From the NCBI GenBank assembly GCA_964016885.1, contig OZ024756.1:32178001-32242000 (forward strand): a DNA stretch of 64,000 nt, in the 5' to 3' direction. This document shows positions 52,047-55,997 of this stretch, in pieces. Within the stretch, counting starts at the first letter, position 1. The number at the start of each line of letters is the position of its first letter. The translations under genes and the position numbers were made by a program. The notes beneath the pieces were generated by a model that saw nothing but the letters and a program-made list of their open reading frames with translations, was not told where the DNA came from and searched no databases. The stretch is from Eledone cirrhosa. Its lineage: Eukaryota.

Positions 52047-52248
52047 AACGAAGGAAATGTGGTAAGGAACCAGGTGGACCATAAACACACCAAAGTACTC
52101 AATACTTAGGGTAGTAGAGTGGGTAATAGGAACGAGTAGGACCCCGACGGCTGAGCTCAAGCCGTTTCGACGGCTAATTCTGCACACAGTCCAGAATTAG
52201 CCGTCGAAACGGCTTGAGCTCAGCCGTCGGGGTCCTATTCGTTCCTAT
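52047..52248. mobile_element. 'Family A' (TA)n-inserted PLE/retrozyme-like fragment with fold-back
   Basis: Inverted arms 52126-52182 / 52192-52248 contain GAAACGGCT-tgagctc-AGCCGTC, the 3' half of a hammerhead. Confidence 0.75.
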
Positions 52249-52577
52249 CTCTCTCTCTCTCTCTCTCTCTCTCTCTCTCTATATATATATATATATATAT
52301 ATCAAGATATATATATATATATATATATATATATATATATATATATATCAGCAATAATTGATGTATTTGTCACCAAATTACCAAACATTTAGAAAATAAT
52401 TAGGAATCAGTTGAATAACATTGTAATATATTTAATCATACTAATAGTTGTTGAATCTCCTAAACGATAAGTACATTCGACTGTCTAGTTCTAAATAGAA
52501 TAGCAATTAAAGTATAATGGAGAGTCATGGTTAGGGCGCTCATGATTTTGTACGAGAAGGACTGGAGCAACATGAAA

Positions 52578-52963
52578 TAATTGTTTCTACTTTTGGCACA
52601 AGGCCAGCAATTATCCCAGTGTAATACTGGTACTTTATTTTATTGACCCCGTAAGGATGAAAGGCAAAGTTAACCTGCGCGGGATTTGAACCCAGACCAT
52701 AAAGGGCTGTAACTCTTTGCAGCAAAGCTTGGCGTCCGACCCTCTACAGAGACGGCCAATCCACCACCCTTATAATTGTTTCTACTTTTGGCACAAGGCC
52801 AGGAAATTACCCAGTACATTACTGGTACTATATTTTATCGACCCCCGTAAGGATGAAAGGCAAAGTTGACCTCGGCGGGATTTGAACTCAGAATTGAAAG
52901 GGCCGCAACTCTATGCGTCAAAGCATGTCGTCCGACCATCTACCGATACTGCCAATCCACCGC
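52578..52963 (-). mobile_element. Two tandem S1 SINE copies
   Basis: Consensus match on the minus strand. Confidence 0.88.
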
Positions 52964-53104
52964 ACTGTTTGGTTTAGATTGGTTTTGGCTTCCGTATATT
53001 TTGTATCCCTATAGTTAATTTACCTGGCAATCAATATTCATCATTGACTGACCAACGGTTATATATATAGATATAATTATATATATATATATATACAAAG
53101 TCTA

Positions 53105-53146
53105 TCAAACTTCTTTCATCACACACCTGTGACATCATCAGTGGTA
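53105..53146 (-). ncRNA. Possible degenerate hammerhead motif
   Basis: Reverse complement: CTGATGA-tgtcaca-ggtg-tgtgat-GAAA. Stems I and III are not evident. Confidence 0.35.
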
Positions 53147-54476
53147 CTATTATATTTCCTCCCGTTCTATGGTAATATCTACTCCATATAACAATATTTG
53201 TTTCAACACACGATTTTATATCAAAAACCTTGCAAAACAAATTCATATATATGTATATGCACATATATAATTCAAACATACAGATTTAGATATCTATTTA
53301 CATCTATCGATTCAGAAAGAAATGTATAATTACCTTGATGTCTAATTTCAAAAACATAGCCTTGTTTTCGAATTAGAAACCGAATTACTCTCTATAAAGA
53401 TTACTCCTTACCCGTTCAACGGGTTGGGTTGAGCCGACTCCATCGAAGGTGTAAGTTAATTTCAATGGAGTTTCTTCGGGCAAATGGTTTCACAAGCGGT
53501 GCTCAACCACCAGCTTATGCGCTTCAGGATAATGTAACCAAAGCATTGCATTGGTTATAGCACCGAGCTCACGCTTTCAAACCCAACCAAATATGGTATT
53601 GGCAGTGCCGTGACTGGAATGGATGGGAGGAAGTTTTGCCGACAGTGGTGAAAACTACAACATATTTAAAACCATTTTATTGGCCACAAACCCTCGGCAT
53701 ACCAACCCTCGCCATCTTACTCTATATTGGTGAGAAATTAAACAGAAATATATATCCAGAAAAAACATGCATATACACATAAAAACGTCAGAGTACATTT
53801 ACTGAGCAAACAAGTGGACAGCTACATGGTCGATTGACTTACTAAAAATAGCAGCCAAATTCCAAATAAATCCACCGAATCTGAATCGCGGATTTAAAAG
53901 GGCCACGTGTATAATGAAGTACAGATTTACACTATTCTTGAAAATATCTTTTGATCATATATACTGTTTCTGTAAGACGTATGATCAAAAGATTATGTCA
54001 ACAGAAGGAGCATTAACAGTAATAGAAGCAGCAGCAGCAACAGCAACAAAGGCGACAGAGGCAGAAACATAGGTTATAATTATGGACACAACCACACGCA
54101 CACACACACACACACACCACGCATACATACACACAAACACACACATACACACACACAAACACACACACATATATATATATATATATATATATATATATAT
54201 ATATATATATATATATATATATATATGTATATTTATATATATATATGTATATACACCCATACACATCCATACACACACACACACACACACACACATACAC
54301 ACACACACACACACACACAGCCACACACACACACACACACACAAACACACACACATACACACACGCATAGTGAAACAGGAGTCGCAACTGTTTATAATTT
54401 CTTTTATTTTATAATATTACAAAATGTCGAGGTTTGATAAGGATTGACGAGTGCAAAATAATTTCCATTATGTCCT

Positions 54477-54553
54477 TTTACGGGGTCGATAAAATAAAGT
54501 ACCAGTAATGTACTGGGTAATTGCTGGCCTTGTGCCTAAAGTAGAAACAATTA
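54477..54553 (+). mobile_element. 5'-truncated S1 SINE with TSD attatgtccttt
   Basis: 3' half of the consensus, flanked by a direct duplication. Confidence 0.82.
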
Positions 54554-54835
54554 TGTCCTTTAAGTTGTATCAAAATTTCATACCATCAATCTGTAGAATT
54601 CATGAAGTTAATAAAAACTAAAACCCCTGTATGACATTTGGGCCACCCTGTATATATATATATATATATATATATATATATATATATATATATATATGTA
54701 TATATATGTAGGAGGTGAGTTTTATTGTAGTACAATAAAGCAATGCAGATATCGGATAAGTACGACTCTAAAGTTTGTAGGACTGAAGTATAAATAATAT
54801 ATAAGATCAAAAGATGGTTAAAAGAGCTCCAAGTA

Positions 54836-54902
54836 TTTTATTATGCGCATTTCAAAAACAAATATCATCATGAGATGATATCTGCGTTTTCATCAGATAA
54901 AA
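54836..54902 (-). ncRNA. Type-I hammerhead ribozyme motif
   Basis: Reverse complement: ttttat-CTGATGA-aaacgcagatatcatc-tcat-gatgatatttgttttt-GAAA-tgcgca-TA-ataaaa. Confidence 0.85.
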
Positions 54903-55791
54903 TAGGGATACATGATACGAAGGTTAAAAAACACTTGTGAATGGTGAAGTTTTAAATCAATATATATATATATATATATATATATATATATATATATATA
55001 TATATATATATATATATATATATATATATATATATATACATATATATATATTCATACGGAGAAATACGTTTTTGAAAATATTGTAGTATAAATACTACAC
55101 ATACCTTCACACAGACATAGACATATATATATATATACATTTATTTTTAACGACAAGCTTTTAGTGCTGCGCATTTCTTTAAGAAATATTAAAATTTTCC
55201 TGAGAACTATTTAGTCATCTATTTAATAGCGCATTTAACTATTTAAAATAATTTTGTGAAGTACTTAGAAGTGTTTACTGTCAAAACGGTCGAACAATTT
55301 ATCTAGTTAAGAATACAATCTATGTAAACTTTAAATGTATTCCGTGTTTAAAATCGACCAACAATTAGTAGCCATTCAATATTGCTTCTGTTTGTCTCAA
55401 TATTCATGTCTGGAACTGGTAGAACTGAAGGAAATTTCTGCCTACTAGAATGAACCTCCGTCAGTTTCGACGATGAGTATTCCAGCTTTTTCATCAACGA
55501 AACTGTTTGTCCGTAAATAATTAGTTTAAATATTTGTTAAGCTTTTGATAAGATCGTAAAGCCTATTAATATATTATATCCCTGCTAATGGTTTCACGGT
55601 CACGGTCGATTATTCATTTAGGGATTAAAAAATTTAAATATTTTAAATAATCTAATAATGTGTAAATAATCTAATAACAGTGATTCAAAACAGTCATCGT
55701 TGATTTACACATATTCTAAATTGCAATTAGTAATATATATATATATATATATATATATATATATATATATATATATATATATATATATATA

Positions 55792-55997
55792 TAACGAAGG
55801 GGAAATGTGGTAAGGAACCAAGTGGACCATAACGCACCAAAGTACTCAATACTTAGGGTAGTAGAGTGGGTAATAGGAACAAGTAAGATAAGACCCCGAC
55901 GGCTGAGCTCAAGCCGTTTCGACGGGTAATTCTGTACAGAATTGAATTAGCCGTCGAAACGGCTTGAGCTCAGCCGTCGGGGTCTTACTTGTTCCTA
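55792..55997. mobile_element. Family A fragment with fold-back
   Basis: Nearly identical to 52047-52248; flanked by (TA)n on both sides. Confidence 0.75.

Follow-up and report, generated by a model that had tools for sequence, protein, structure and literature searches.

Junctions of Family A fold-backs in Eledone cirrhosa point to two separately primed cDNAs of a Penelope-like retroelement

In a stretch of 64,000 nucleotides (nt) of the Eledone cirrhosa genome (assembly GCA_964016885.1, contig OZ024756.1, positions 32,178,001 to 32,242,000 of the forward strand; hereafter the window), short inverted repeats of a dispersed family, Family A, turn around within a predicted hammerhead ribozyme. 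As read from its sequence, Family A represents the terminal repeat, together with its tail, of a Penelope-like element (PLE) of the Hydra type, 3.54 kb in length. The junctions between the paired arms point to two separately primed complementary DNAs (cDNAs), and not to the snap-back or template switch of one cDNA at the ribozyme hairpin that an earlier note on this DNA had put forward. Each fold-back probably arose from two cDNAs that were primed from the two cut strands of the target, ran off a fixed 5′ end of the RNA, likely its transcription start, and were joined head to head. Positions in Family A are numbered with the A of AGTCC as +1, which places the G of GAAA at +19 and the predicted cleavage site between +41 and +42.

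Family A fold-backs and their junctions

The copies at 52047, 55792 and 38972 are all inverted repeats, as the earlier note described them, and all are embedded in (TA)n, which masks any target-site duplication. Their arms are asymmetric, one stopping at TTCCTAT (+61, site 1) and the other bearing an 80-nt tail to +141 (site 2). In copy 52047, the tailed arm (52047..52182, minus strand) comprises the 3′ half of the predicted hammerhead, site 1 and the 80-nt tail, ends at site 2 in (AT)n, and is exact from +5, or from +2 if one mismatch is allowed; a 5-nt filler (52183..52187) joins it to a tail-less arm spanning +1 to +61 (52188..52248, plus strand), with GAAA, stem III and GUC at 52206-52228, and the (TA)n target microsatellite occupies 51980..52046. 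Copy 55792 consists of a tailed arm that begins at +5 and has 5 nt duplicated in the bulge of stem I (55793..55934, minus strand), a 9-nt filler that is mostly a templated repeat of arm sequence (55935..55943) and a tail-less arm from +7 to +61 (55944..55998, plus strand). Copy 38972 belongs to an older subfamily: its tail-less arm starts at about +17 (38968..39012, minus strand), a 5-nt filler follows (39013..39017) whose final base may be the native -4, and its tailed arm starts at -3, or at -4 on that count (39018..39159, plus strand; +1 at 39021). The perfect 6-bp stem III with GUC that had been ascribed to all three is confined to copies 52047 and 55792, since copy 38972 has 5 bp and a T.T mismatch, with GTAA instead of GAAA in its short arm. 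The three junctions differ from one another and lie about 15-25 nt upstream of GAAA, where the earlier note had placed the symmetry centre; they fall not inside the stem II loop, however, but beside it, in the 3′ arm of the stem II apical hairpin. No Family A match in the window (15 BLAST hits) reaches upstream of -4.

The same boundary recurs across the 3.0-Gb genome, in which a 35-mer of one Family A subfamily has 7,230 exact matches. A junction sample was taken from the first 100 places listed for this 35-mer, chosen blind to the junction, and yielded 91 arms: 56 start at -4 to +8, 17 at +9 to +42, 4 at -14 to -5 (two of which resemble alignment overreach) and none at -89 to -15, while 14 are long copies that continue upstream. 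Against uniform truncation over 400 nt, the clustering at -4 to +8 has p = 3e-61, which bears out the predicted enrichment of breakpoints inside stem II. In the genome as a whole, both arms are intact to +2 in 4,193 fold-backs but extend to -5 in only 137, the latter counted with a less strict pattern; contig word depth (run X2) rises about 11-fold across +1 and drops after +141. The result is a one-sided wall at -4 to +1, at which both arms halt or downstream of which they are trimmed, and no one junction acts as the master. An accumulation of arms at the predicted cleavage site was also considered and rejected: 7/91 arms start at +41/+42, but this is the edge of the anchor pattern, and genome-wide lists read by eye give about 10-11 of 100 arms at +41/+42, compared with about 9 each at +39 and +33/+34, with about 6 of 100 opposite arms starting at the site and no clear excess.

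The joins carry short fillers, overlaps or T/A runs. In the set of 62 short pairs, fillers separate the arms in 31, the arms overlap in 27 and the join is blunt in 4, and the native T at -1 is retained in 29/39 arms with filler, native bases often being kept to -3/-4. Long T/A runs occur at the join at five loci (L064, L104, L123, L132 and L141), beside the native TTT at -3 to -1, and may reflect slippage at the template end. With 29/31 fillers distinct and the three junctions in the window different, the view that the insertions were independent events holds for most of them. This contradicts a single ancestral fold-back amplified as a unit, like a miniature inverted-repeat transposable element (MITE), a reading made very improbable also by arms that nearly always share a subfamily-specific bulge, across several subfamilies, and by the same architecture at many longer breakpoints; in its favour, some junctions recur when read by eye, with a direct join at +2 in 5 of 50 listed fold-backs and an 8-nt palindromic spacer in 5 of 50. 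Classification as a MITE was likewise rejected on the distinct fillers, the asymmetric ends and the retroelement parent.

Origin of the paired arms

The 3′ ends of the arms are as narrowly defined as the wall. A sample of 250 Family A arms, with 63 head-to-head pairs, favours tailed arms but permits pairs with two tails; site 1 ends 102 of these arms and site 2 ends 123, in each case directly in microsatellite, so that (TA)n or (AT)n abuts 225/250 arm ends. Tailed and tail-less arms are combined in 61/63 pairs, both arms are tail-less in 2/63, and none (0/63) has two tails. In Poseidon_Ac, according to Frangieh et al. 2024 (PMC11167929), the PLE protein cuts and extends both DNA strands, hammerhead cleavage is dispensable for insertion, and reverse transcription begins at two RNA sites bracketing the tail; the arm ends at sites 1 and 2 and the paired layout match these two start sites and the extension of both strands. 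By extension from that system, a reverse transcriptase (RT)-endonuclease would nick both strands of a (TA)n target and begin one cDNA at each site, and the two cDNAs would meet at the joins described above. An inverted copy with a one-sided tail is the standard PLE layout (PMC8557442).

A single cDNA that snapped back at the stem II hairpin and primed its own second strand would account for the coincidence of the turning point with the apical hairpin, for the frequent overlaps (27/62) and templated fillers, and for the private variants common to both arms at L061 and L079; self-priming has moreover been put forward for head-to-head pseudo-long terminal repeats (pLTRs) by Arkhipova et al. (PMC3846280). 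Snap-back on the native apical hairpin would, however, leave the native loop in the junction, which is found in 1 of 50 listed among the 137 fold-backs reaching -5, against 4,193 fold-backs intact to +2. With snap-back, too, the tail-less arm should contain nothing beyond the tailed one. Yet it is the tail-less arm that reaches further 5′ in 17 of the 62 short pairs, against 20 in which the tailed arm does and 25 in which the two are level; the excess of the tail-less arm amounts to hundreds of bases in 5/91 (L070, L071, L081, L135 and L139, the last seen in part) and is above 1 kb in L176-L178 and L181. The short arm, moreover, ends at the fixed site 1. Family A is joined head to head with a further hammerhead-bearing family, E, in L046, L048 and L051 (L038 is ambiguous), and with another family in L108; the joins with family E surfaced through a loose search pattern for the upstream ribozyme half and are not an unbiased sample, whereas L108 comes from the unbiased one. 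Such cross-family joins need two RNAs. Together with a wall unrelated to stem II in three other families (below), these observations contradict snap-back as the main route, for which it is a highly unlikely explanation, although a minority of the joins, and templated fillers, may have arisen in this way.

At five further loci (L039, L045, L050, L054 and L096), Family A arms pass at their 5′ end, without change of sense, into internal parts of other repeat families, as template jumps would produce.

Position of the wall relative to the ribozyme and to promoter motifs

The long copies contain the part of the ribozyme that the stumps lack. Their minimum-free-energy fold is a type I three-way junction (pair probabilities 0.47-0.96) with a 5-bp stem I bearing a bulged extension, an unpaired core, GAAA, a stem III with a palindromic loop, GUC, and a predicted stem II of about 57 nt capped by the apical hairpin. 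Full-length copies with a predicted hammerhead fold could thus be recovered, as the earlier note had anticipated, and the upstream half is indeed missing from all three fold-backs in the window; this half reads UUGAGAA or CUGAGAA, however, and not CUGANGA. Among 69 long-copy cores, overlapping loci counted in, 35 are UUGAGAA and 2 are other U3-A8 cores, 31 are CUGAGAA with a C3.A8 mismatch, and 1 is of another kind; U3-A8 covariation of the core has been described in PLE hammerheads, in Cercyon elements of Schistosoma (PMC4209133). The C3.A8 subfamily (L063, L070, L176 and related loci) combines a mismatched core and a weaker TATA-like box with many copies. The predicted fold is no more stable than shuffled sequences (z -0.43 and 0.07), the full ribozyme has no Rfam hammerhead match at E <= 10, and hammerheads are absent among the best 150 of 347 Rfam matches for the window. 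A canonical upstream half (stem I plus CUGANGA before GAAA) gave 0 pattern matches, and a looser pattern gave 41, of which the 30 inspected by eye were fillers, decayed arms or chimeric partners; readings as hepatitis delta virus-like or twister ribozymes, made by eye from consensus structures, were dropped once the full hammerhead turned up.

If ribozyme structure dictated the insertion architecture, as had been suggested, the wall should follow the ribozyme, and it does not. In Family A it lies at least 43 nt after the start of the core, inside stem II. In three further hammerhead-bearing families sampled for 5′ pile-up (C, D and E), the arms accumulate 6, 5 and 122 nt upstream of the core: 12/24 intact-start arms of family C begin at an A 6 nt before it, 29 nt below TATAAATA; of the 9 family D arms outside the long class, 6 start on an A that precedes it by 5 nt; and of 21 short arms of family E, with starts read by eye and some being paired arms of a single insertion, 15 start no more than about 7 nt from an A that precedes it by 122 nt, no arm starting between this wall and 9 long arms. 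The wall position relative to the ribozyme differs among the four families, and therefore the wall does not follow the ribozyme. What the four walls have in common is an A after two pyrimidines, TT|AGTC or TC|AGTC in A (one older subfamily has TCAGTC at +1), CC|AGCT in C, TT|AGTT in D and TC|ATAT in E.

An RNA polymerase II core promoter has its TATA box at about -30 and its initiator at +1. A TATA-like box, TATTTAAA, stands at -29 in young Family A copies, the match across Family A having 1-2 mismatches, and a perfect box stands at -29 in family C. A promoter inside the pLTR has been demonstrated for D. virilis Penelope (PMC2377424), and TATA and initiator-like motifs have been proposed for Adineta pLTRs (PMC3846280). 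The wall would likely be the template RNA's 5′ end, and a transcription start is the origin that we favour, with less assurance, for that end. At its 5′ terminus, an RNA starting at the wall would not include the ribozyme's 5′ half; the core half would then be missing from the stumps because the RNA would start within the ribozyme.

Several observations weigh against a transcription start, or against two run-off cDNAs in general. The wall of family C is softer, 4/24 arms starting 3-7 nt upstream and 8/24 extending at least 14 nt. The box has 2 mismatches and stands at -31 in older Family A subfamilies, is weak in family D (2-3 mismatches, at -35) and is missing from family E. An untemplated, cap-derived G is not clearly enriched in Family A (4/39 arms with filler), an extra G being present at the junction in 4/12 cases in family C and 3/7 in family D. 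The wall of Family A lies 2-3 nt from the apical hairpin loop, so that this family by itself does not distinguish a start site from an effect of structure, and the walls of A, C and D can also be read as YYAG, resembling a splice acceptor. The few-base asymmetry of the short pairs could have arisen after insertion. Finally, ten long copies, picked for long open frames from 150 listed matches, reach the upstream repeat, and 10/10 run beyond +1 there, none stopping; a tandem array crosses the same site repeatedly. A single RNA from +1 therefore cannot explain all copies, and a second template class or strand transfer is required: long and tandem copies would derive from templates extending upstream (read-through, multimeric or circular RNA) or from strand transfer.

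Two other origins of the wall retain the two cDNAs. In one, the fixed 5′ end would be made by RNA processing, through cleavage related to a splice acceptor, an RT stop at a branch point or a 5′-3′ exonuclease halted by a structure or a bound protein. The YYAG walls, those of C and D standing at the 5′ foot of stem I, the D. virilis intron that ends at the 5′ end of helix I (PMC4209133), the weak or missing TATA of D and E and the long copies that cross the wall are in keeping with it; it nevertheless appears unlikely, as no constant first-exon sequence is seen upstream of the wall, Family A arms often keep native bases to -3/-4, the wall of E has no AG and family C has a perfect TATA at -29. 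In the other, both cDNAs would stall and be released at +1 of a longer RNA, at folded stem II or a bound protein, in the course of an early non-processive phase. The position of the Family A wall within predicted stem II, of the C, D and E walls at or near the 5′ foot of a stem, and the long copies that reveal templates extending upstream all speak for such a stall; yet RT would have to pass stems I and III and the lower part of stem II, all GC-rich, only to halt in a hairpin rich in AU, arms whose priming sites are 60 and 140 nt away would have to end at the same base, and the tandem array crosses +1 repeatedly, which together render it rather improbable.

Families C, D and E are also present in the window. 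Fold-backs of family C (41300-41490 and 2124-2294) contain a whole hammerhead with CUGAAGA or CUGAUGA and turn 5′ of stem I, the perfect TATA box standing 29 nt above the turn in long copies. A fold-back of family D (62543-62704) has the core variant CAGAAGA; its 35-mer has 29,503 exact matches, and a related PLE open reading frame (ORF) lies upstream in long copies. Family E (about 60500-60930, minus strand, and L242-L271; 5,687 exact matches) has a hammerhead with a minimal stem III, a CCAAT box about 52 nt upstream and no TATA. Families D and E are tied to related ORFs, and family C has no ORF within 1.5 kb.

The parent element, further copies and known systems

The 14 long copies among the 91 sampled arms continue upstream through about 1.1 kb of non-coding sequence and then into an ORF. 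Intact copies elsewhere in the genome have a 3,542-bp unit with a single ORF of 717 amino acids from an ATG at +232, which encodes RWR at 37 (a conservative variant of RWK), DKT at 117, an RT with YRDD at 348, a CxCX5C linker (CNCPDRSIC) at 572, a VIY-x12-YIG motif near the C-terminus (by eye), CNLC (CxxC) at 670 and CKH (CxH) at 698. The ORF has no Pfam match at E <= 0.1, and its 645 homologues at E <= 1e-20 are all unnamed, so the placement among Hydra elements rests on motifs; the diagnostic motif set of that clade, in which CxxC and CxH surround a conserved E and N, is given by Craig et al. 2021 (PMC8557442), whose supplement lists Hydra-1_Obim from Octopus bimaculoides. The layout of insertions by endonuclease-bearing (EN+) PLEs is present too, with partial tandems, an inverted 5′-truncated copy and a tail at one end. 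A retrozyme of the non-LTR kind (one lacking long terminal repeats) was rejected: such elements are defined by short tandem repeats in which each unit has a complete hammerhead (bioRxiv retrozyme preprint), whereas the short copies here are inverted pairs with half a ribozyme and the tandem units are coding and 3.54 kb long.

The tandem array is a single insertion (L172, L173 and L291; G000:C1:91.473-91.494 Mb) of about five near-identical 3.54-kb units, with about 65 copies of a 55-bp ORF segment where a 1.08-kb inverted arm joins; the array and its 55-bp reiterations suggest reiterative or rolling synthesis. Two long arms (L284 and L287) end at +162 and +149, slightly short of priming site 2 of the upstream repeat.

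Further Family A sequence in the window comprises another fold-back (42426..42569, minus strand), whose tailed arm begins at about +14/+16 and whose tail-less arm begins at about +42, a solo tail-less arm from +6 to +61 between (TA)n tracts (62406..62461, minus strand), a tail-less arm that starts exactly at +1 and abuts unrelated upstream sequence (2429..2490, plus strand), older, rearranged pieces (3892..4160, plus strand) and a tail-only fragment from +71 to +141 (56416..56486, plus strand). Units of about 195 bp that belong to a different dispersed family, many of them arranged as short tandem runs, occur at 52575-52966, 9481-9992, 28219-28741, 30249-30574 and other places.

Family A resembles the Hydra clade, as described in PMC8557442, in having one ORF with RWK-like and DKT motifs, a CxCX5C linker and, at the C-terminus, a GIY-YIG-like domain with CxxC/CxH, as well as in its (TA)n target, a predicted hammerhead within the pLTR, tandem and inverted 5′-truncated copies and a one-end tail. 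It differs in length (3.54 kb versus <3 kb), in its tail (80 nt versus 30-40), in a non-canonical hammerhead, which has a U3-A8 or C3.A8 core and a stem II about 57 nt long and lacks an Rfam match, and in that most copies are stumps with a sharp 5′ wall, its clade placement coming from motifs. With Poseidon_Ac (PMC11167929) it shares two RT start sites bracketing the tail and an AT-rich target, but that study, in its accessible text, addresses 3′ ends and does not explain a head-to-head join or a fixed 5′ end. Head-to-head inverted pLTRs with an optional tail and pLTR promoter motifs are common to Adineta vaga and D. virilis Penelope (PMC3846280, PMC2377424); unlike the self-priming on an antisense template envisaged by Arkhipova et al., the cross-family joins and longer tail-less arms seen here point to two independent cDNAs. 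The predicted ribozyme shares type I topology, a palindromic loop III and the U3-A8 core with other PLE hammerheads (Cervera and de la Pena 2014, PMC4209133) and departs from them in a stable stem III of 5-6 bp and in a long stem II that holds the TATA-like box and the junction wall.

A related process is the twin priming of long interspersed nuclear element 1 (LINE-1, L1), in which each target strand primes a cDNA and joining by microhomology yields a 5′ inversion; the second L1 cDNA copies upstream sequence, with little duplication. In Family A, unlike LINE-1, the two cDNAs would start from two fixed sites and copy one and the same segment.

Earlier publications already cover the clade, the inverted layout with its tail, both 3′ ends and the U3-A8 core. 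The window contributes the 5′ side, with a base-sharp wall that shifts relative to the ribozyme across families, the cross-family joins and a probable promoter nested in stem II; a literature search, with thin coverage of subscription journals, found no publication linking PLE fold-back junctions to the RNA 5′ end. We tentatively suggest, as one possibility among several, that PLE fold-back junctions map the transcription start to the base. The promoter of Family A would now lie inside stem II, its messenger RNA would start in mid-ribozyme with an uncleavable 5′ end and offer only its 5′ untranslated region for priming, giving dead-end stumps, and ribozyme-processed multimeric or circular RNAs would give rise to the long and tandem copies that regenerate the promoter.

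The origin of inverted and tandem PLE ends and the role of the hammerhead are stated as open in PMC8557442, PMC2377424 and PMC11167929. On these questions, thousands of independent junctions in this genome argue against self-priming and for two independently primed cDNAs, and they yield a base-precise prediction of where the template RNA would start in four families, the gain being a sharper mechanistic test rather than a new system.

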